From NCBI RefSeq assembly GCF_018977255.1, contig NW_024704743.1, positions 24,988,001-25,052,000 of the forward strand: DNA of 64,000 nt, given 5' to 3'. Origin of the DNA: Callorhinchus milii (taxonomy: Eukaryota). The notes below the pieces were generated by a model, which ran no database searches, was not told the origin of the DNA, and saw only the letters and a program-made list of their open reading frames with translations. The position numbers were made by a program, and so were the translations under genes. This document shows, in pieces, positions 29,813-60,421 of this stretch (position 1 is its first letter; each line of letters starts with the position of its first letter).

Positions 29813-29952
29813 TCACTTTGGCTTTTTACATTTGCACTGCAGAAACACCCTTGGCACACAGAGACCTTCTTTCTTATTAATAGTTTCACGCTGTACATAT
29901 TCATTGACCAGCAATTCATATCCTGCAGCCGTCAAGAGCCGACACACATATT
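29813..29952 (-). CDS. METTL6: tRNA m3C methyltransferase METTL6, last coding exon
   Basis: TAG acceptor completes phase 1; (E)YVCRLLTAAGYELLVNEYVQRETINKKEGLCVPRVFLQCKCKKPK*. Confidence 0.95.
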
Positions 29953-31243
29953 CTATTGGCAAAACAGAAAGAAACAGACAACATGAAGAACAAGTGAGTT
30001 CTGGAAAGAAACATACATCCACAGTTCTGAAAGTTACAATAAGTTGCAATAATTGGCATAACAATTCTTATAATAATATAATAAAAATATGCATTTGATA
30101 TAGTTGGGCTTATCACATTGTCGAAACATCTCAAAGCACTTCACAGGATATACTGTAAAGTGATGTAACTCTATTTTGTGGGTGAAACACAGCAGCCAAC
30201 TTGCAAGCAGCAAGTGGCTTTTTATATAAAAGCTTGCAAAAAATAAGTGCACTGTGTGATGATACTTAGAACACATATTGTCTTAGACCCAGTCCTTGCT
30301 GAAAAATCTGTGAGAAGCTTCTGTGTAAAATATACACTTAGTGACGATGACTACCTCTTTCCTAGTGTTATTCTGTTCTATAGAAAAGAGATTCACAAAA
30401 GCCACTATCGCGTTAACTGGCAGCTAAAATCCACAATCTGCAAGCCGGAAATCACACCCAGGCCAGGGAGGGCGGCATTGAAAATGGTCGGGTGGTTAGG
30501 ATGGAAACCGGCACATTGGTTAATTCATATTCCACACTTCAGGAATCTTTAATTTGGACCGTATGTTATACCTAATAGAACCATAGATATATACAATATC
30601 AAGAAATTGCACTTATATAGTGCCTTTCACGTCAGGAAGTCATCCTAATACACAGTTGAGGTTTTGCACCCGAGTTTGAGATGGATTCAAGGGGTGGGGT
30701 TAGGGGGGGTGGTGGGGAAAAGATGACCGAAAGCACAGTCAAAGAGGAAAGTCTTGAGAACTCTCCCCCGTATTGCTTTGGAATGTCAACTTAGACTGTG
30801 TGTCAGGATATGGGGCTTGAACCACAATCCGCTGACTCAGAGGCGAGAGTGCTACCAACTTAGCCAGTCTGACACAAACTATCGTAACTATAGAACCAGA
30901 AGCATAACTTCACACAGCTAGAATTTAGCATTTTATAATAATAATCCTTTCATTTGCTATAGTGCTTTTCACGTTTTCTAGACATCTCAAAGCGCTTCAC
31001 AAAATGTACAGTAAAGTGAATTGATTGTATATTTGTGGGTGAAACAGGCAGCCAATTGCGCAATTTATGCAAATCTATTTCACCTTCAGATCCCTGAGAC
31101 AAAGTTATAATTTTTTTAAAACATATCTGCCTGTATATGTTAAGATGGCAGACACTTCAGAATGATAGGCAACGTGCATCTGAGCCCTCAATCAAAGTTG
31201 AAAATCCCTTCACTTCTTTAAACAATGACATACAGTATCTCAC

Positions 31244-31385
31244 CATCGGAAAAGAAGAAAGACCGGGTTCCATCTTGCCGAACATAAAAATTTGATCCAA
31301 GTTTGTGACCGGTTTTAAAACGGAGCATGGTGTGGTCATACAGTCCATAGTCTCGGAATAGTAGGCATCCACCTGGTTTCAATAC
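31244..31385 (-). CDS. METTL6: METTL6 coding exon 4
   Basis: CAG|VLKPGGCLLFRDYGLYDHTMLRFKTGHKLGSNFYVRQDGTRSFFFSD+1 nt|GTGAG; 142 nt. Confidence 0.96.
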
Positions 31386-32120
31386 CTGCCAGAAGCACAC
31401 AGAGAACCATCAGCAGCTCAGCTACAACAAGCACATTAACAACAACAACTTGGATTTATATAGCGCCCTCCACGCCAGACGGCGTCTCAGAGCGCTTCGC
31501 AGTAACAGATTCTCAACTACTGTAGGAATTGACACGTCTATGTCACATCAGTGCAACAATACAATTAATTCATAAAATATGCAACATTTAATGATTTAAA
31601 AGTAAACCATACACAACAACAACGAGGTTCTAATTTACGATATTGACAAACTAGATTTGGGGCATTAATTGCGAGTTCTGTTTTGCGGTTATCAGATTGC
31701 CAGTGAATCACTAATCCAGCGTTTACATTCTGACATTTGGTCAGATTGTTCAGGCCTTAGGGATAAGTAAGCAGGGTCTCCCTGTGGCTGGGCTGGCTCC
31801 AAGGTGATGTGTCTGCTGATGGAATGTCAATCCTCCGCGGCAAACTCAGGAGTCCAGCTCTAGAGCAATTGGATCCGCAAGACTCCAAGGCATTGCTGAT
31901 GATAGACCAGTCGGCCTGGCTTGATGGCACGACTTGGGAGGAGCAGACCAGGCACTGGGGGCAGGGATTCTTCTCCTAACAACTCTTCAAGCCAAAGCCC
32001 TAACATCATAGAAGAGCAGAGTCAAATAGTCGATGGAATATTATTGTTGAATCCTTTCAAATCTCCTCACTTGCACATTACAACTAAAGAGGCGAAGTGA
32101 AAGTGTCATTAGGTACTAAC

Positions 32121-32291
32121 TTTATAAATATTTTCTAAGACCAGCTGCATCTTGTCTGGGTGAATGGCAGAGAGAACAAAGATCAATGTTACAGCGTCCA
32201 CCGAGTCTGCTGGCACGTTCTCCAGGAGGTTATCTTTCGTCAGGTCACACTGGAAGGCATTGCACCGCTCAGGGTTGTATAAAGGGTTTTG
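32121..32291 (-). CDS. METTL6: METTL6 coding exon 3
   Basis: AAG|QNPLYNPERCNAFQCDLTKD...LIFVLSAIHPDKMQLVLENIYK|GTTAGT; 171 nt. Confidence 0.96.
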
Positions 32292-33068
32292 CTTTAAAAA
32301 CAAAACAAAGGCAAGTCTGTGCGAAATATTAACGACCATCATACTGTAGCAATAACAACAACAAATTATATTTGTATAGCGCCTTTCATGTCAGGAGGAC
32401 GTCCCAAGGCCCTATGCAATATGTAGCAAACTATACACAATAATAATGGTTCTAATTGACAGTATTTACAAAGCAGATTTGGTGCACTAATTACAACTTC
32501 TGTTTTGCAATTGTAAGTTTGCCAGTAAATCACGAAACCCAAATTGGTAAAATCCAGTGTTTGCCTTCCAACATTTTGTCCAATTTTTTTACAACCCTTA
32601 GAAATAAGATTTACATTTATTTCACTCTGAAACAATGCGACCGCGTTATGATATGCTGCAGGTTACCAAGTACAATAAGTTTAAAAGGTGAAGCAAGTAA
32701 TAACAATGGGGGAGTGGCACTAGTTGGATAGCTCTTTCAAAGAGTTGGTACAGGCACGATGGGCCTCCTTCTATGCTGTAGGATTCTATGATAGGAATAC
32801 ACCAATGGCAATATGTGGGAGAAAGTAAATTAACTTTATTCGGGAATTTTTATGTCAGCTAAAATTTGTTTTCGTACACAAAAAAAGTTACAAAGCACTT
32901 AAAAAATACAACCACCTACAAAATACAGTATCTTGTTACAAAGGTGTCACTGTTCTCAGCAGTGCCACCAACACCAGATGTGCCACCAACAGTGCCAAAT
33001 ATGCCAGAAAACAGTGCAGTACCAATAAATTAGTAGTCATTAAAAACAAGGGCCATTTATGCACCAAC

Positions 33069-33203
33069 CTTGACGAATTCTACAGCTCGGGGGGAGAAAT
33101 CACAAGCATAACTAAATATATTCAAATCTTCTTCCAGGAGAGGAAATAAACAGTTTCCCACTCCACAGCCAGCTTCCAAGACGATCAGTTTTTGAGCTGG
33201 AAA
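33069..33203 (-). CDS. METTL6: METTL6 coding exon 2 (SAM-binding motif I)
   Basis: CAG|FPAQKLIVLEAGCGVGNCLFPLLEEDLNIFSYACDFSPRAVEFVK|GTTGGT; 135 nt; too short for the ORF track. Confidence 0.96.
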
Positions 33204-33740
33204 CTGTAGGGAAGAGAAACACATAAAGTTAAGTACACAATCATTAAAATATTGCTGAATAACAAAACCATAAAGCAGAAAGGTGCTGACATTTCACCAA
33301 TTAAAGGAATCAGCTATATTTTGAACAAGGGTCAATATCAATATTGTGCAAGGGAATACAACAATCTTCATTTATATTCCTTGTTTCACATTAACAAATC
33401 TTAAAGCACTTGACAAATATATTGGTGGTTGCCAAGCAGGGAAATAAGGGATTCAAAGTTGTTGGTCAATGACACGGTGAAAGAGATATGTTTTTAGGTT
33501 CTTGAAGATAGTAAGAGAAGTAGCAAGACATTGTTAAAGAGGTTTTAAAGAATAAAAGCAGAGTATTTACTTGAAGAAAAGTATTCTTCTCATGCTATTT
33601 ATTTCCACCACAAAATAATCAAGTATTTCAAATGATCAATTTTTTGTTTTCTGCAGGTTTTCACTGAACTGATCACTGCATCAGCGTCTAAATGCTCAGC
33701 CTCGTTGTAATGCCCTCTTGCTTCAGTCAGCAGCACTTAC

Positions 33741-34070
33741 TTCTCTACATGCTTTCAACTCTTCAAATTCCCTAGTTGTCCAATGCCTGTCTTTGAAAAA
33801 ATTGGTACTGTTTCTCTTATAAAATAAGTCCCAATTCTTCTGCGCTTCTCTTTCCAGTTTTTCTTGCTTAAAATCAGACACGAGATTCCGGTCTTTTTCT
33901 AGTTTTTCTGCCTCCTCAGGGTCCAGGATTCTCGCACTGTGTCCTATTGTTTGAAAAGTCGCTTCTGGCCTGTAAGGTGTTACAGTCACCATTTTCTCTC
34001 TTAAAGTGCAATCACTTCGCTGTTCTGTTCTCTGTGGTTCAGTAACACAAGCTTCCTTTGTGTCACCCAT
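33741..34070 (-). CDS. METTL6: METTL6 coding exon 1 (exon begins at 34113; ATG at 34070)
   Basis: MGDTK...ARILDPEEAEKL...EAQKNWDLFYKRNSTNFFKDRHWTTREFEELKACRE|GTAAGT. Spliced CDS totals 918 nt (305 aa); start-codon choice is inferred. Confidence 0.93.
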
Positions 34071-34959: not shown

Positions 34960-35521
34960 AGGAGGGAGGGAAAGGGGGAGGGAAGCGGGGAGGAGGGGCA
35001 GGAGAGGGGGAGGGAGGGGGGAGGGGGGGCAGGAGAGGGAGGGGGAAGGGCAGGAGAGGGAGGGGGGAAGGGCAGGAGGGAGGGAGAGGGGGAGGGAGGC
35101 GGGGGAGGAGGGGCAGGAGAGGGGGAGGGAGGGGGGAGGAGGGGCAGGAGAGGGGGAGGGAGGGGGGGAGGAGGGGCAGGAGAGGGAAAGGGAGGGAGGA
35201 GGGGCAGGAGGGGGGGAGGAGGGGCAGGAGGGAGGAAGAGGGGAAGGGGGGAAGGGCAGGAGGGAGGGAGAGGGGGAGGGAGGCGGGGGAGCAGGGGCAG
35301 GAGAGGGGGAGGGGGGGAAGGGCAGGAGGGAGAGGGGGAGGGAGGAGGGGCAGGAGATGGGGAGGGAGGGGGGAAGGGCAGGAGGGGCAGGAGGAGGGAG
35401 TGGGGGGGAGGGAGTGGGAGGAGGGAGGAGGGGGGGAGTGGGGGGGGAGGGAGGGGGGGAGGGAGTGGGAGGAGGGAGGAGGGGGAGTGGGGGGAGGGAG
35501 TGGGGAGGGGGGAGTGGGGGG
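34960..35521. repeat. G-rich polypurine tract (METTL6 intron 1)
   Basis: Almost entirely G/A with many G-runs; starts at the 5' break of a small L2 3' fragment. Confidence 0.92.
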
Positions 35522-35748: not shown

Positions 35749-35863
35749 ATGAACGGCACCTCCCAGCCCGGCCTCGGCCTCAGCCTCGGCAAAGAGGAGC
35801 ACGTCCTGAAACTGGGCGAGAGCTTCGAGAAGCGGCCCAAGAGCTCCTTCCACACCATCCGCT
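35749..35863 (+). CDS. EAF1: ELL-associated factor 1, exon 1
   Basis: [38 protein letters not shown]+T|GTGAGT. Confidence 0.96.
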
Positions 35864-35879: not shown

Positions 35880-36352
35880 GGAGGGGAGGGGTGGGGGAGG
35901 GACTGAGAGAGAGGGGGGGGGGGAGAGGAGAAGGGGGAGAGAGAGAGAGGGGGTGGGGGGGGAGAGAGAGAAGGGGGGAGAGGGAGAAGGGGGGAGAGAG
36001 AGAAGGGGGGAGAGAGGAGAAGGGGGGGAGAGGAGAAGGGGGGAGAGAGAGAAGGGGGGGAGAGGAGAAGGGGGAGAGGAGAAGGGGGGAGAGGAGAATG
36101 GGGGGAGGGAGGAGAATGGGGGGAGAGGGAGAATGGGGGGAGAGGGAGAAGGGGGAGGGAGAGAGAGAAGGGGGGGAGAGAGAAGGGGAGAGAGGAGAAG
36201 GGGGAGGGAGAGAGAGAGAAAAGGGGGGGAGGAGAGAGGAGAAGGGGGGGGAGAGGGGAGAAGGGGGGAGGGAGAGAGAGAGAAAAGGGGGGGAGGAAGA
36301 GAGGAGAGAGGAGAAGGGGGGACGGGGTGGGGGGACACAAGGTGGGGGTGGG
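35880..36352. repeat. GA-rich polypurine tract (EAF1 intron 1)
   Basis: Visible directly. Confidence 0.92.
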
Positions 36353-37325: not shown

Positions 37326-39530
37326 TTTATATATTTGTATTTAAATGTGCAAGCACAAATCTACAAACCTTGTGTGCTGTGAAACTGTGATGTACTGCAA
37401 TGGCACTGATTCAAGTTTAGAGCAGCTCCATATGAACAAGGTTCTTGCACTTCCGTGGACTTGGCAATGGTGGACAGTTTGTTTGGGAGATAGTAGCTCA
37501 AAGGTGCAAGAAGGCAGAATTAATGAAAATCATTGAGGATTGTGGTAGATTGGATTGGCAGACCAAACCTGATGTGTTGATTGAAAAGAGCAGTTGCATT
37601 AACTTGCATTTACACTCACAGTGCATTTCAAGTAAAAGAACTTATGAAATACTAGATAAATATAGCGGTGGACACAGATCGGGCAATTAATAATATAACA
37701 ATAATACTTGCATTTCATAATAACGTCAAAATGACTCCATCCACTTCACAGATTCTTTCTGTAAAACTTACTGACTGTATTTGGAAGCAAATGCAATTTG
37801 CACAAAGCAGTTTCCTGCAAATCATGAAGGGAATGACCATTTTTTATATGGGGGGTTGTTGGCTCGGACACCAAGAGATTAATGTCAAATAGTGCCATAG
37901 TCTTCAATGCCTGCATGAACAAGACAGTTGGAATCTCAGTTTAATGACTCATTCAAAAGATGCACCTATGCTAATTCAGCACTATGCCCTACACTGTATT
38001 CAAGTGTCACTTTAGAATATAAAGTACCAGTATGGTGTTTGAACATAAGCAAACTGAGTTCATGTGATTTCACACCATCCTACTACTTGATGCAGGAGCT
38101 TGCAAAAGCTAGTCTGGTCTTTTTGCTAGGTACATTGACCAGTACATTGACTAGTATTTTGCAGAAATTTCCTACTTTAGTTCAACCTAGGCAAAACATT
38201 TATACCAATTTTTTCTGAAAAGGGTCAACAAAAGTAAGGGATATAACCAGCTAGAAAATTAATATGGGAATTTGAATGGATACAATTCATCAAAGTTGAT
38301 GCAGTCCTGTTGAAATATACCAACTATCACCTCAGGATGCCTTGGTATATTTCAAACAGCAACCGAATGTTCCAGAAGGTTTGATATGGTTAAAATTAGC
38401 TTTGCTGGATGAGCTGAGGTCAGCTTCTGATTACATTTCATAGTTTCCTGGGGTGATGTTCACTCCTCTGAGATAATGAGTAATCGGGTCCTTGAGCATA
38501 GATGTAAGAACAATGAACCATAGAAAGAAAAGGCTACAGCCTCAGACACCTGCCTATCTCAAGGCTGAGAGACAAGTAGGCTGTGGAAGGCTGCCCAGAA
38601 GTCGTCCATATCTCTGTCTGCAAAGCAGCCCGTGATGGGTGGGGGCTATCTCTGTGACAAGGGGAGGTGGAGTCAGAAACACATGAAATAAAGATGTAAC
38701 TTTGAAATAGTTGAATTTGTGCAGAGGGTCAGTGCGCTTCCCAATGGATTCGATTCTACTGTGTGTGTGTGTGTGAAACTGTAAAGCGCTCTGAGACGCC
38801 ATCCGGCATGGAGGGCGCTATATAAATCCAAGATGTGTATATATACACAATATATATATATATATATGTATGTATAGGGGTGAGGGAATGTATCTCCAGT
38901 AAGAGAGTGACCATTAAAAGTGAAAGACGAGGGGTAGTGGGTAATATGTTTGTTTTTGGTTCTGTTTGCTAGGCAGAGAAGTGGTAACAGTAGTAGTGGT
39001 TGGTCTTTTTGATAACCAGAAGTCAGATTAGGCAGCACGAGTGAGGTGCTGGGCTAAGAGCTGATTGTTTCTGTTGAGTTTGCAGGAGCCACTCTCTGAT
39101 TCTGTGTGATAGTTCTATGATCTCTGCTCAGTATGTTTTATATAGGATTGGTTGTGTCCGAGGGTTTACCAGCGCCAGTCCCTATTAGGTTTTGTTTTAC
39201 AGAATCAGTAGTCCCTGAGGGATTTACAGAGGTTGCTCTCTGCTGTGTGCGTTGAGGTGCATTCTCAGGCTTATTGTTTTGTTTGGAGTAATTTCTGAGT
39301 GCATGCTGTTGTTTCTCAATTATTTGATTCATATATCTGTGTCATTACATGATGTGGACTATTGTGTTATATGGTCATATGATTTTTGAATTTTACTGTT
39401 TGTCTTATATATATTTGATATTAATGGAATAAACACTATACTCTTATCACCGCCTGTCGAATTATTAACAGTCCTGATCACTATAAGCTCATAAAACTAA
39501 CTGCTGATTTATGCTTCTCTTTCTCTTCAG

Positions 39531-39603
39531 ATGATTTTAAACCAGCATCCATAGATACATCATGTGAGGCGATCAGGTCACCATCACTTTGCCACACATC
39601 CCA
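39531..39603 (+). CDS. EAF1: EAF1 exon 2, apparently lacking 22 nt (frameshift as assembled)
   Basis: CAG|(Y)DFKPASIDTSCE-[GELQVGK absent]-gc-DQVTITLPHIP|GTAAGT; 73 nt versus 95 needed for the conserved peptide. Confidence 0.9.
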
Positions 39604-39763
39604 GTAAGTTAGCAGTCTTTGTCATTTTATGTGTTTTTGTAAACTATTTGCATTCTAAATGTAACGTGTTCAGCCAGATTCCATCAACTATTTGACAATT
39701 TCAGACTGTGGGTAACAAAATGCTAGAAAACTAAAATCCAATCTGTTTTTTGTTGCTCACCAG

Positions 39764-39902
39764 GGCTCCACCCCACCAATGACTGTGTTCAAAGGTAAAA
39801 TAAAAGGCCATATCAGAAGGACTGCGTTCTTATCATTAACCATGACACTGGGGAGTTTGTGCTGGAAAAACTAAGTAGCAGTATACAGGTGNAAAAAACC
39901 AG
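39764..39902 (+). CDS. EAF1: EAF1 exon 3, with 2 extra A (39797-39800) and an N at 39892
   Basis: [47 protein letters not shown]+AG|GTGAG; 139 nt versus 137. Confidence 0.9.
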
Positions 39903-40887
39903 GTGAGATTACATAGGTGTGCTAACTGAATCCTTGAATACTTGTTTTATTTTGCTTTTCATTTTACTGCAGTTTGATTCCATGACTCCTCAGTATGAAC
40001 TTTAAAGATTTGAATGGAATTGGCACATCTTCCTATTCAATTTCCATGTTTGTTTCTGCCTCGCAGTTTTTGGATATAGTTAGCAATGAGTCAACTGAGA
40101 TTTCTTTCAACTTCCTCTTTGGTGAGATTTATTCCATCATGGAATATTTTGGTACTTAACAGAGTATCTTGAATTTGTTTGTATTGAACTTTGCCACAGA
40201 TTAGTCCAGGTACTTGTTGAGTAAGATCTTAGGGCTCTCCTGTAATTAAACGCAGAGATTTTAGTCTCATGGATAGGTCTTGTTTGACAGAATGTTTTTA
40301 GGGGACGTTTGATGGTGTAAGTAGACTTTCATTTTGTTTTATATAACCAATCCTTTACTAATGGGTAATGGATATTTAAAGGTATACAGTTTGTTCATGA
40401 CTCCCTCCATTCCGCACAAAATTGATAAATGCAATCTCGTAGTTGGTGAAGAAAGAACAAAAATTCACACTTATGCTGACCAATCCACAATGATTTCTTC
40501 TGTAATGTCTTGTCATCAGCGGTAGAGTTATGAGACAGATCTGGCAAAACTCCTCTACTCCTCTCGCCCTTCATTTGACATCTTGACTCTTGAAAGGACA
40601 AGCTTTGTATTTTGTGAGTGTTGATAGCATTCTCACCTCTGAAGGATGTGGGTTCATCGGTATTTTGAACTTGTATAGCTTAGGCTCCAATGCAGTTTCA
40701 CTCCACTGCAGTAGTGGGGGTGTATTGCATTGTTGGGAGTACTATGATAAGTTGAAACAAGGTCCTGTCTGCTTGGTCAGGTTGATGTTAAAAATTCCTG
40801 GTCATGAGGTAATTGTGTTTGTTTTAGTGTTTGCATGGATGGTGTCTGAACACAGTGTGACATTTCAAAATGACCCAATTCTTTCAG

Positions 40888-41054
40888 AGCTGAAGGAAGC
40901 AGTAAAATTCAGGCTCAGTTTGAGCAGCAGCTGGCCCGAAGATCCCAGCCTTCCTCTCAATTCAGGGCCCCCAATAAGCCTATTGCTGGTCCAAAAACAT
41001 CTCCATCAAAGGACAACCCATCACCTGAGCCCCAACTTGATGACATAAAAAGAG
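40888..41054 (+). CDS. EAF1: EAF1 exon 4
   Basis: CAG|(R)AEGSSKIQAQFEQQ...GPKTSPSKDNPSPEPQLDDIKR+G|GTATGT. Confidence 0.95.
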
Positions 41055-41169
41055 GTATGTATGTATGTCCTATATAAATGTGAGAAACTAGAAAGCAGTG
41101 AGGTTCGGCAAGTCAAGGTTTTGTTTGAATCTAATTTTTGTTGGATGTCTTGTGTTTTGTGGTGATTTT

Positions 41170-41260
41170 ACAAAGTGATAAACCTCCACCATAATGTGGT
41201 TCGCTATAACATGGGATTAATTTATATCGCGATTGGGCTGTGGACCCCAACATTGATATC
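41170..41260. mobile_element. Possible Tc1/pogo (Tigger-like) terminal fragment
   Basis: AAACCTCCACCATAATGTGGTTCGCTATAAC...ATATCGCG resembles Tigger-type subterminal sequence; no partner end found. Confidence 0.3.
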
Positions 41261-41843
41261 TGAAAACCAAGCCCCCTCATCTTTACATTTAAATTCATGT
41301 TAGAGCAATGCAATGCTGCCAACGGCTTTCCACCCACGAATAGAGTGGCATCAACAGTTATGTGATTGATGATTTCATGACCCATAAGCACTGACCGCCA
41401 GCATCTCTTGAGCGCACTTTGGCATAAGGCATTTTATGGACCCACCTATGATGGAACAAAGAAGTGCAGCAAAGAAGATATTGTGCGCTCTTTGCAGCTA
41501 TGTGGGTATTTATGGTGATTGGCATTGAGGTACAGTGCAGACCTTTGAGTGATCACCGTAGTTCTAAATTGCTCACATAGTTGTCTTTTCAAGAATTGAA
41601 ATATACGGACATACACACTTGTTTGCAACAAAAATGTAGTTTCACCCACAAATATACAGTCAGTTTACTTTACAGCATATTCTGTGAAGCACTTTGAGAC
41701 GTCTAGAAGACATGAAAAGCACTATATCAAATGCAAGGATTATTATTATTAGTACATGTTGACTAGTGACCTAAAGAAGATAAATGAGAGCAGTTGACTT
41801 CTGAAATAATTTTTCCCATCTCCTCTCTCTTTCCTTCCCCCAG

Positions 41844-42101
41844 AACTGCGAGCTGAAGTTGACATCATTGAACAGATGAGCAGCAGCAGTAGTAGTTCCT
41901 CGGGTTCAGGAAGTTCCTCTGGCAGTGATGACAGCTCCAGCAGCGATGTGGAAAACGAAGCTCAGCCTTCATCTACGCCGCCACAACTGCAGCCTCAGCC
42001 TCAACCACAACCACAGCATCAGTACCAGCAGTACAGCAACCGAAACTCTGCTTCAAATGGCACAAGCAGACCAGGGAGCATTCAGCTCATGAGCACTCTC
42101 A
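41844..42101 (+). CDS. EAF1: EAF1 exon 5 (Ser/acidic transactivation region)
   Basis: CAG|(E)LRAEVDIIEQMSSSSSSSSGSGSSSGSDD...NGTSRPGSIQLMSTL+A|GTAAGT. Confidence 0.95.
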
Positions 42102-43037: not shown

Positions 43038-43351
43038 GGAGTCCTGTAGCTCAGTAGTTAGAGCACTCGCTTTGCAAGTGAGAGACCTTAGTTCAATTCC
43101 ACGCAGGGCGAAACCATGGGCAAGTTTCCTTACTCCACACGCCTAATAATAATCCCTCCAAAACCAAAAACAATAATAAATTGGTCATTTTTAATCTACG
43201 ACTGTTTGTGGGACATTGCTGTGCACAATTGGCTGCCGCGTTCGCCCACAAATATAGTCAATTCACTTTACAGTGTGTTCTGTGAAGCGCTTTGGGACGT
43301 CCTCCCGACGTGAAAAGCGCTATATCAAATGCAAGGATTATTATTATTATT
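43038..43351 (+). mobile_element. tRNA(Ala-like)-derived Deu-domain SINE, short young variant (tail type A)
   Basis: Full-length; TTTGCAA anticodon-loop relic, L2-type stem-loop, (ATT)n tail. Confidence 0.92.
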
Positions 43352-43962: not shown

Positions 43963-44009
43963 GAAATGATTTGCAACTGAGTGAATCTGGAAGTGACAGT
44001 GATGATTGA
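43963..44009 (+). CDS. EAF1: EAF1 last coding exon
   Basis: CAG|(R)NDLQLSESGSDSDD*, the conserved EAF1 C-terminus. Confidence 0.96.
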
Positions 44010-56654: not shown

Positions 56655-59240
56655 TGAGAAAAATAAAGAAATGTAGAAAGATAGAGACAGGGAAAGAAAA
56701 CAGAGAGACAGGGAGAGAAAAGAGAGACGGAAAAAGAGAGAGAAAACGAAGTTAAGAGAGATAAGAGAAAAAAAGAGATACAGAGAGAAAAACAGGAATA
56801 GAAAAGAGAGAAAAAAACCACAGCGAAACAGAGGGGAAAAGATGGAGAGAAAGTGAGATGAGAGAGAAAAAAAAACAGAAAGAAATAAAGAGAGAAAATA
56901 AGAGTGAGAGATTAGAAACAGGAGAGCGAGAGAGAATAAGAGAGATAGAAGAGAGAGGGAGGGAGAAGAAGAGATAGAAGAGAGAGGGAGAAAAAAAGAG
57001 ATAGAAGAGAGAGGGAGAAGAAAAGAGATAGAAGAGAGAGAGAGGGGGAGAAAAAAAGAGATAGAAGAGGGAGGGAGGGAGAAAAAAAGAGATAGAAGAG
57101 AGAGGGAGGGAGAAAAAAAGAGATAGAAGAGAGAGGGAGCAGAAAAGAGATAGAAGAGAGAGGGGGAGAAAAAGAGATAGAAGAGAGGGAGGGAGAAAAA
57201 AAGAGACAGAAGAGGGAGAGAAAAAAAGAGATAGAAGAGAGAGGAAGAAAAAAAGAGATAGAAGAGAAAGGGAGAAAAAAAGAGATAGAAGAGAGAGGGA
57301 GAAAAAAAGAGAGAGAGGGAGGGAGAAAAAAAGAGATAGAAGAGAGAGGGAGAAAAAAAGAGATAGAAGAGAGAGGGAGAAAAAAAGAGATAGAAGAGAG
57401 AAGGAGAAGAAAAGAGAGAGAGAGGGAGGGAGAAAAAAATAGATAGGAGAGAGAGGGAGAAGAAAAGAGATAGAAGAGAGGGAGGGAGAAGAAAAGAGAT
57501 AGAAGAGAGAGAAAAAAAGAGATAGAAGAGAGAGGGAGAAGAAAAGAGATAGAAGAGAGAGAGAGAAGAAAAGAGATAGAAGAGAGAGGGGGAAGAAAAG
57601 AGATAGAAGAGAGAGGGAGAAGAAAAGAGATAGAAGAGAGGGAGGGAGAAGAAAAGAGATAGAAGAGAGGGAGGGAGAAGAAAAGAGATAGAAGAGAGAG
57701 AAAAAAAGAGATAGAAGAGAGAGTGAGAAGAAAAGAGATAGAAGAGAGAGGGAGAAGAAAAGAGATAGAAGAGAGAGGGGGAAGAAAAGAGATAGAAGAG
57801 AGAGGGGGAAGAAAAGAGATAGAAGAGAGAGGGAGAAGAAAAGAGATAGAAGAGAGAGAGAGAAAAAAAGAGATAGAAGAGAGAGGGAGAAGAAAAGAGA
57901 TAGAAGAGAGAGAGAGAAAAAAAGAGATAGAAGAGAGAGGGAGAAGAAAAGAGATAGGAGAGAGAGGGAGAAAAAAGAGATAGAAGAGAGAGAGAGAGAG
58001 AAAAAAAGAGATAGAAGAGAGAGTGAGAAGAAAAGAGATAGAAGAGAGAGGGGGAAGAAAAGAGATAGAAGAGAGAGGGAGAAGAAAAGAGATAGAAGAG
58101 AGAGGGAGAAAAAAAGAGATAGAAGAGAGAGTGAGAAGAAAAGAGATAGAAGAGAGAGGGAGAAGAAAAGAGATAGAAGAGAGAGGGAGAAAAAAAGAGA
58201 TAGAAGAGAGAGTGAGAAGAAAAAAGATAGAAGAGAGAGGAAGAAAAAAAGAGATAGAAGAGAGAGTGAGAAGAAAAGAGATAGAAGAGAGAGGGAGAAA
58301 AAAAGAGATAGAAGAGAGAGGGAGAAAAAAAGAGATAGAAGAGAGAGGGAGAAAAAAAGAGATAGAAGAGAGAGGGAGAAAAAAAGAGATAGAAGAGAGA
58401 GGGAGAAGAAAAGAGATAGAAGAGAGAGGGAGAAGAAAAGAGATAGAAGAGAGAGGGAGAAGAAAAGAGATAGAAGAGAGAGAGGGAGAAGAAAAGAGAT
58501 AGAAGAGAGAGGGAGAAGAAAAGAGATAGAAGAGAGAGGGAGAAGAAAAGAGATAGAAGAGAGAGGGAGAAGAAAAGAGATAGAAGAGAGAGGGAGAAGA
58601 AAAGAGATAGAAGAGAGAGGGAGAAGAAAAGAGATAGAAGAGAGAGGGAGAAGAAAAGAGATAGAAGAGAGAGGGAGAAAAAAAGAGATAGAAGAGAGAG
58701 GGAGAAAAAAGAGATAGAAGAGAGAGGGAGAAAAAAAGAGATAGAAGAGAGAGGGAGAAGAAAAGAGATAGAAGAGAGAGGGAGAAGAAAAGAGATAGAA
58801 GAGAGAGGGAGAAGAAAAGAGATAGGAGAGAGAGGGAGAAAAAAGAGATAGAAGAGAGAGGGAGAAAAAAAGAGATAGAAGAGAGAGGGAGAAAAAAAGA
58901 GATAGAAGAGAGAGGGAGAAGAAAAGAGAGAAGAGAGAGGGAGAAGAAAAGAGATAGAAGAGAGAGGGAGAAGAAAAGAGATAGAAGAGAGAGGGAGAAG
59001 AAAAGAGATAGAAGAGAGAGGGAGAAGAAAAGAGATAGAAGAGAGAGGGAGAAGAAAAGAGATAGAAGAGAGAGGGAGAAGAAAAGAGATAGAAGAGAGA
59101 GGGAGAAAAAAAGAGAGAGAGAGAGAGGGAGAAGAAAAGAGATAGAAGAGAGAGGGAGAAGAAAAGAGATAGAAGAGAGAGGGAGAAGAAAAGAGATAGA
59201 AGAGAGAGGGGGAGAGAGAGGGAAGAAAGAGATGAGAAAA
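56655..59240. repeat. Polypurine tract with 27-bp minisatellite core (GAGATAGAAGAGAGAGGGAGAAGAAAA)n, ~56940-59210
   Basis: 9-aa periodic ORFs (RRKEIEERG) confirm the 27-nt period; length/27 gives roughly 84 units. Confidence 0.97.
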
Positions 59241-60243: not shown

Positions 60244-60259
60244 GTGTGTTCACCGCAAC

Positions 60260-60421
60260 ATGGATTTCCAGCAGTTTGTCGACATTGCAGACAAATGGTG
60301 CTATAACACCCCGTTCGAGCTCATCGCCACCGAGGAGGCCGAGAGCCGCCTCGATTTCTACGCCGATCCTGGGGTTTCGTTCTACGTCTTGTGCCCCGAC
60401 AGCGACTTCAGAGATAATTTC
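60260..60421 (+). CDS. MTURN: Maturin (neural progenitor differentiation regulator, C7orf41), first coding exon
   Basis: MDFQQFVDIADKWCYNTPFELIATEEAESRLDFYADPGVSFYVLCPDSDFRDNF|GTGAGT matches the maturin N-terminus (MDFQQLADVAEKWCSNTPFELIATEE...). No further exon seen in the window. Confidence 0.95.

Follow-up and report, generated by a model that had tools for sequence, protein, structure and literature searches.

The window, i.e. the entire stretch of 64,000 nucleotides of Callorhinchus milii DNA analysed here, holds the gene EAF1 with six coding exons, a methyltransferase gene arranged head-to-head with it and the first coding exon of a DUF4581 gene (Table 1). The central gene is identified by its sequence as EAF1 of C. 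milii. The piece encoded by exon 3 matches the Pfam family EAF (PF09816) with an E value of 4.3e-07 and 30.7 bits (cut-off 26) and corresponds to residues 78-108 of human EAF1 (PDB 7OKX chain O). Exons 4 and 5 are identical in 55/55 and 85/85 residues, respectively, to the C. milii EAF1 proteins P0121 and P0122 from the database, and in the ten sharks and rays compared 45-51 of the 55 exon 4 residues are identical. Among the best 120 of 279 matches obtained with exon 4 none was named EAF2, and the informative names were EAF1 or EAF-domain proteins. Moreover, P0122 matches human EAF1 over residues 14-274 (E 1.4e-115). The organization into six coding exons is likewise found in vertebrate EAF1 (PF09816; human EAF1, PDB 7OKX/7OKY; C. 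milii XP_007887858.1, UniRef100_A0A4W3KAD7), whereas the assembled copy differs from it by a 22-nt deletion, a 2-nt insertion, an N and an exon 1 that is two residues shorter. All splice sites of the six-exon model are GT-AG, in agreement with the first-pass annotation, which had described them as intact. The listed alternative splice sites were rejected, since the RNA contigs take the canonical ones.

Table 1. Features of the EAF1 locus. Positions refer to the window; X1 and X2 are DNA-like runs, and the RNA contigs stem from runs X5 and X10.
Feature	Position	Strand	Remark
Methyltransferase gene, head-to-head with EAF1	29813-34070	-	five coding exons, open 305-aa frame, no lesion; control
EAF1 exon 1, coding part	35749-35863	+	115 nt, phase 1 donor
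Intron 1, 3' end, single-copy	39471-39530	+	shares contig X1 record 3 with the deletion-bearing exon 2 and its intron-less joint to exon 3
EAF1 exon 2 as assembled	39531-39603	+	73 nt; 95 nt in the RNA contigs
Site of the 22-nt deletion in exon 2	39566-39569	+	RNA and X2 contigs insert 22 nt behind 39566
EAF1 intron 2	39604-39763	+	160 nt, GT-AG; in the parent gene but not in the second copy
EAF1 exon 3 as assembled	39764-39902	+	139 nt; 137 nt in the RNA contigs; core of the Pfam EAF domain
Premature TGA	39780-39782	+	with the assembled exons spliced unchanged
Two extra A in exon 3	39797-39798	+	RNA contigs leave out 2 nt at 39797
Single N in a Lys codon of exon 3	39892	+	no indel
EAF1 intron 3	39903-40887	+	985 nt; in the parent gene but not in the second copy
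EAF1 exon 4, intact	40888-41054	+	167 nt
EAF1 exon 5, intact	41844-42101	+	258 nt
EAF1 exon 6, coding part with stop	43963-44009	+	
DUF4581 gene, first coding exon	60245-60412	+	Pfam PF15167

When the assembled exons are spliced unchanged, the reading frame ends after 68 aa at the premature TGA, and leaving out exons 2 and 3 together produces a stop directly after exon 1. The computed spliced frames thereby agree with the earlier annotation on both the stop and the joint skipping of the two exons, which it had rejected as out of frame; it had missed that, with an exon 2 of 73 nt, the omission of only exon 3 keeps the frame and leaves an open product of 219 aa. The repaired protein has, by arithmetic (799+20 nt), the 272 aa given before, and P0122 reaches 274 aa because its exon 1 holds two more residues. 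Exon 1 of the window is shorter by these two residues, in frame, in a short GC-rich repeat at 35749-35790, and this difference could be either a polymorphism or another assembly indel.

The two length changes were also compared with 152 homologous proteins, comprising the best 120 of 279 matches and 32 cluster members. The flanks of the lesion in exon 2 have one single spacing in 129/129 spanning homologues and those in exon 3 one spacing, 15, in 124/124. Hence, the loss of 22 nt and the gain of 2 nt are real departures and not chance variation. Owing to a 3-nt direct repeat at its ends, which is visible solely with the intact sequence, the deletion can be placed at any point from 39566 to 39569. 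Such short flanking direct repeats are typical of biological deletions. A repeat structure accounting for the deletion was not found within the window. The 64000 bases contain a single letter other than A, C, G or T, the N at 39892 that had been noticed before; its count as a third lesion did not hold, since none of the contigs listed for the four runs has an indel at this site and both C. milii proteins have Lys there. A unitary pseudogene or a fixed loss of EAF1 was rejected, given that the splice sites and the remaining exons show no further decay.

The region 38900-41600 was compared with the assembled contigs, i.e. not the raw reads, of four sequencing runs from three studies (X1, X2, X5 and X10), which were taken from 24 listed runs (18 holders, 5 studies). 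The contig listings used here leave out 580 pieces, 127 loose ends and one indel row. X5 and X10, from two studies, were taken as RNA by guess and on the basis of their spliced contigs. X1 and X2 comprise 885 and 897 million letters with a flat depth of about 6-11 over introns 3-4; because of this genome-like size and flat intron depth they are read as DNA, their kind not being on record.

Each of the two RNA-type runs contributes one spliced contig with an exon 2 of 95 nt (X10 record 8, positions 32-126; X5 record 18, positions 133-227) and an exon 3 of 137 nt, the loose ends of which join exon 1 sequence (to 39531) and exon 5 sequence. X10 record 8 has no substitution over exons 2-4 and differs from the window by the two indels alone, while X5 record 18 has one substitution in addition to them. 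The 22 nt missing from exon 2 and the two surplus letters in exon 3, which had been recognized from the assembled sequence, are thus exactly the differences to the RNA contigs at 39566 and 39797. Reads or transcripts with exons of 95 nt and 137 nt had been named as what would refute a biological lesion, and their presence in X5 and X10 does so for the species. In the DNA-like run X2, record 11 joins intron 1 to an intact exon 2 and record 12 reads through intron 2 into an intact exon 3, so that both indels are absent in RNA as well as in X2 DNA. Intact exons 2-3 were found in 2/2 RNA-type and 1/2 DNA-like runs. X1 shows neither an intact exon 2 nor any cover of intron 2, and the hole at intron 2 proves nothing. 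The other 20 listed runs gave shares of 0.06-0.08, close to the expectation of 0.083 for intact mRNA as against 0.104 for lesioned mRNA; these shares were not counted as evidence.

The database proteins P0121 and P0122 are both intact across exons 2-3. The start of P0121 is identical in 32/32 residues to the translation of window positions 39473-39568, after which it continues through the missing residues, suggesting that it was modelled on genomic DNA in which exon 2 is intact. Over introns 3-4 the window is free of gaps relative to X1 (records 4, 5 and 7) and X2 (records 14 and 16), with intron 3 being read through by X1 records 4-5 and X2 record 14; in intron 2, X2 differs from the window by two 1-nt indels. 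Collectively, these data show that EAF1 of the elephant shark is an intact six-exon gene for a normal protein of 272-274 aa.

In addition to this parent gene, the DNA-like runs contain a second copy of EAF1 that lacks introns. The joint 39603>39764, corresponding to the loss of intron 2, was found in X1 (depth 15.6) and X2 (8.46), and the joint 39899>40885 (cut +3), corresponding to the loss of intron 3, was likewise found in X1 (17.7) and X2 (12.5). The junction contigs carry 5 substitutions over 139 nt (X1 record 3) and 6 over 102 nt (X2 record 13). Carry-over of mRNA as source of the junctions in the DNA runs was rejected, because the RNA contigs lack these substitutions. At 39797 the second copy is longer than the mRNA by 3 letters in X1 record 3 and by 2 in X2 record 13. 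The substitutions listed as common to X1 and X2 are located at 39801, 39832, 39835, 40941 and 40945; those at 40941 and 40945 in exon 4 lie on merged contigs, and their assignment to the second copy is therefore deduced. Four of these five alter a residue, three of them at near-invariant positions (N in 135/135 and II in 129/136 homologues), a pattern as in a neutral pseudogene. Processed pseudogenes, or retrocopies, are products of the LINE reverse transcriptase. The second copy resembles them in that introns 2 and 3 are precisely removed, in its frameshifts and in its mostly residue-changing substitutions, and differs from them in that neither an exon 1-exon 2 junction nor a poly(A) tail or target-site duplication was seen for it in the DNA-like runs. 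Being diverged, frameshifted and without at least introns 2 and 3, it is a processed pseudogene. The lengthened A-run and several substitutions belong to this retrocopy, as they are linked on single contigs.

The extent of the retrocopy beyond exons 2-4 is less sharply defined. In X1 as well as X2, contigs break off where exon 4 ends, which suggests that intron 4 is missing from the retrocopy, too. At its 5' side, among the pieces listed, neither an exon 1-2 junction nor a break at the start of exon 2 was present in the DNA-like runs; hence, the retrocopy may have retained the last part of intron 1 or may be truncated on this side. X1 record 3 differs from the window in the single-copy end of intron 1 by one substitution and a 5-nt gap at 39491. 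Contigs specific for the retrocopy have a depth of 17.7 in X1 and 8.5-12.5 in X2, compared to 7-11.5 and 6.1-9.5 for the parent introns. Within the 64-kb window, tblastn detected no second EAF copy.

The comparison of the window with both copies gives an indication of how the false frameshifts arose. The window has the RNA or parent base at 5/5 listed sites of common substitutions and the state of the second copy at both indel sites, i.e. it appears as a chimera of the introns and single bases of the parent with the two indels of the retrocopy. Both lesions are exonic and match the second copy, while the adjoining introns 3-4 are free of gaps and the neighbouring methyltransferase gene is intact, so that the local base quality is not poor. 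The confinement of the lesions to exons is explained by the existence of the indels in a second copy without introns. We regard it as likely that the EAF1 frameshifts are an assembly artefact with the retrocopy as source via mis-mapping and polishing. Short reads of the retrocopy, resembling the parent only in exons and present at 1 to about 2x the parent depth, would have been mis-mapped onto exons 2-3. An indel-correcting polishing step, deduced here from the sequence comparison, might then have written the indels into the assembly, in which the retrocopy itself is presumably absent or collapsed. The earlier preference for a consensus or polishing artefact thus stands, owing to the intact exons in two RNA studies and X2, but its reasoning was incomplete: the lesions are not random slips but indels that exist as real DNA, probably both of them in the intron-less copy.

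Some observations fit less well to an artefact derived from the retrocopy. X1 record 3 bears the same 22-nt deletion as the window; however, the deletion appears in only one of the four runs, and none of the X2 contigs listed at 39566 carries it. Between the deletion and the intron-less junction there are 37 nt without a substitution, a distance longer than the 31-letter word, and therefore its location on the retrocopy is likely but not proven by linkage. Alternatively, the X1 contig could stem from a path in the graph along which a parent allele with the deletion is connected to the retrocopy. X1 shows no intact exon 2. Furthermore, the 5-nt gap at 39491 was not imported into the window, although this would be expected if it were fixed on the retrocopy, and the artefact gives no account of the N at 39892.

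These points lead to the possibility of a real lesion in the parental gene, which in all its forms together we consider unlikely. That the parent locus really carries the deletion, as a frameshift allele segregating in wild elephant sharks and possibly acquired via gene conversion from the retrocopy, appears improbable; a 73-nt exon 2 puts the exon-3-skipped product of 219 aa in frame, hence carriers may be partly rescued. Quite improbable is the more specific case that the deletion is a segregating parental allele shared by the assembled animal and X1, with only the two extra letters coming from the retrocopy or from error. The joining of intron 1 to the deleted exon 2 on X1 record 3, the lack of an intact exon 2 in X1 and the 3-nt direct repeat as a biological signature would all agree with such an allele, the transcript of which, if subject to nonsense-mediated decay, would escape the RNA contigs. 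Moreover, zebrafish eaf1-/- mutants are viable and fertile (PMC10066051). However, the X1 contig runs on into the intron-less, substituted exon 3 at about 2x the depth of the X1 parent introns, the second lesion of the window, 230 nt away, is of the retrocopy type, and X2, X5, X10, P0121 and P0122 are all intact.

Ordinary random consensus errors without any contribution of the retrocopy are very improbable as well. The N is situated 95 nt from the 2-nt insertion and the latter within an A-rich stretch, as errors might be; but random errors would hardly produce the identical 22-nt deletion in the independent run X1, nor a change in length precisely where the second copy is longer too, and the nearby introns are gap-free relative to X1 or X2. 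A real, patchy gene conversion from the retrocopy into one parental allele of the assembled individual would likewise yield lesions that match the retrocopy and are confined to exons, with the introns left in place, yet it requires two separate tracts, each with an indel and no substitution, and position 39801, four letters from the insertion, is of the parent type whereas the second copy differs there in both runs, which makes it highly improbable. Finally, a recent loss of EAF1 throughout the species with EAF2 as a buffer, which had been considered from the assembled sequence alone and which the survival of eaf1-/- zebrafish (PMC10066051) would permit, is refuted by intact spliced contigs from two RNA studies, intact genomic contigs of X2 and two intact database proteins, leaving it next to no probability.

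An artefact from retrocopy reads has a parallel in human variant calling, where reads of processed pseudogenes assigned to parent exons result in false damaging variants confined to exons, according to PMC11719938. The EAF1 lesions are similarly exon-confined and from pseudogene reads, but in contrast to the variant calls described there the error appears to be fixed in an assembly and is limited to the indels. Polishing is known to overcorrect when similar copies make the polisher overwrite authentic sequence; PMC12016036 discusses segmental duplications, satellites, transposons and haplotypes, while the case of EAF1 concerns a pair of retrocopy and parent. In listings of the openly accessible literature we found neither a description of retrocopy indels polished into the parent gene of an assembly nor an EAF1 pseudogene in sharks. 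The EAF1 retrocopy of C. milii is hence a by-product of the present analysis for which no printed record was found. The biological weight of the finding is small, as EAF1 is intact, and its importance lies in the trap it sets for claims of gene loss in a species that is much used as vertebrate outgroup. A reference can hold pseudogene frameshifts together with intact splice sites and short-read support, so that a lesion would be wrongly confirmed if the reads supported it uniformly. The signature, consisting of exon-only indels, parent-type substitutions and intron-less junctions in DNA runs, could be screened genome-wide.

Several repeats were observed in the introns of EAF1. Positions 38900-39470 of intron 1 are a multi-copy repeat with a summed depth of about 70-600 and many X1 and X2 contigs that are 90-95% alike; it ends sharply at 39470 and has no second copy in the window. 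An AATAAA is located about 40 nt before its end in ACA, which we take to resemble the end of an LTR. Within this repeat, the 63 nt at 39318-39380 are swapped for other sequence on a contig in X1 as well as X2 (joint 39317>39381), representing either a second haplotype or another copy of the repeat. A short repeat of high copy number, with a depth of about 900 in X1 and X2, occupies 40720-40810 in intron 3. Long G/A-rich arrays of low complexity lie on either side of exon 1 at 34960-35513, in the promoter region shared with the methyltransferase gene, and at 35905-36322, at the start of intron 1.

In the remaining window, Rfam gave eight tRNA-like matches between 7928 and 53588, none of them at the EAF1 lesions. 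The matches at 43040 and 44412 are at the head of a repeat that occurs about 29 times in the window, and from these two contexts the matches are probably tRNA-derived SINEs and not tRNA genes. Among 150/160 other stop-free stretches outside 29.8-44.1 kb, Pfam gave one weak RVT_1 match and no further control genes. The methyltransferase gene is presumably METTL6 by motifs and synteny, with a tentative N-terminus. The DUF4581 gene, which we assume to be MTURN/maturin, is preceded by a 2.3-kb tandem array at 56923-59210, comprising 84 copies of a purine-only unit of 27 bp with 92% matches.
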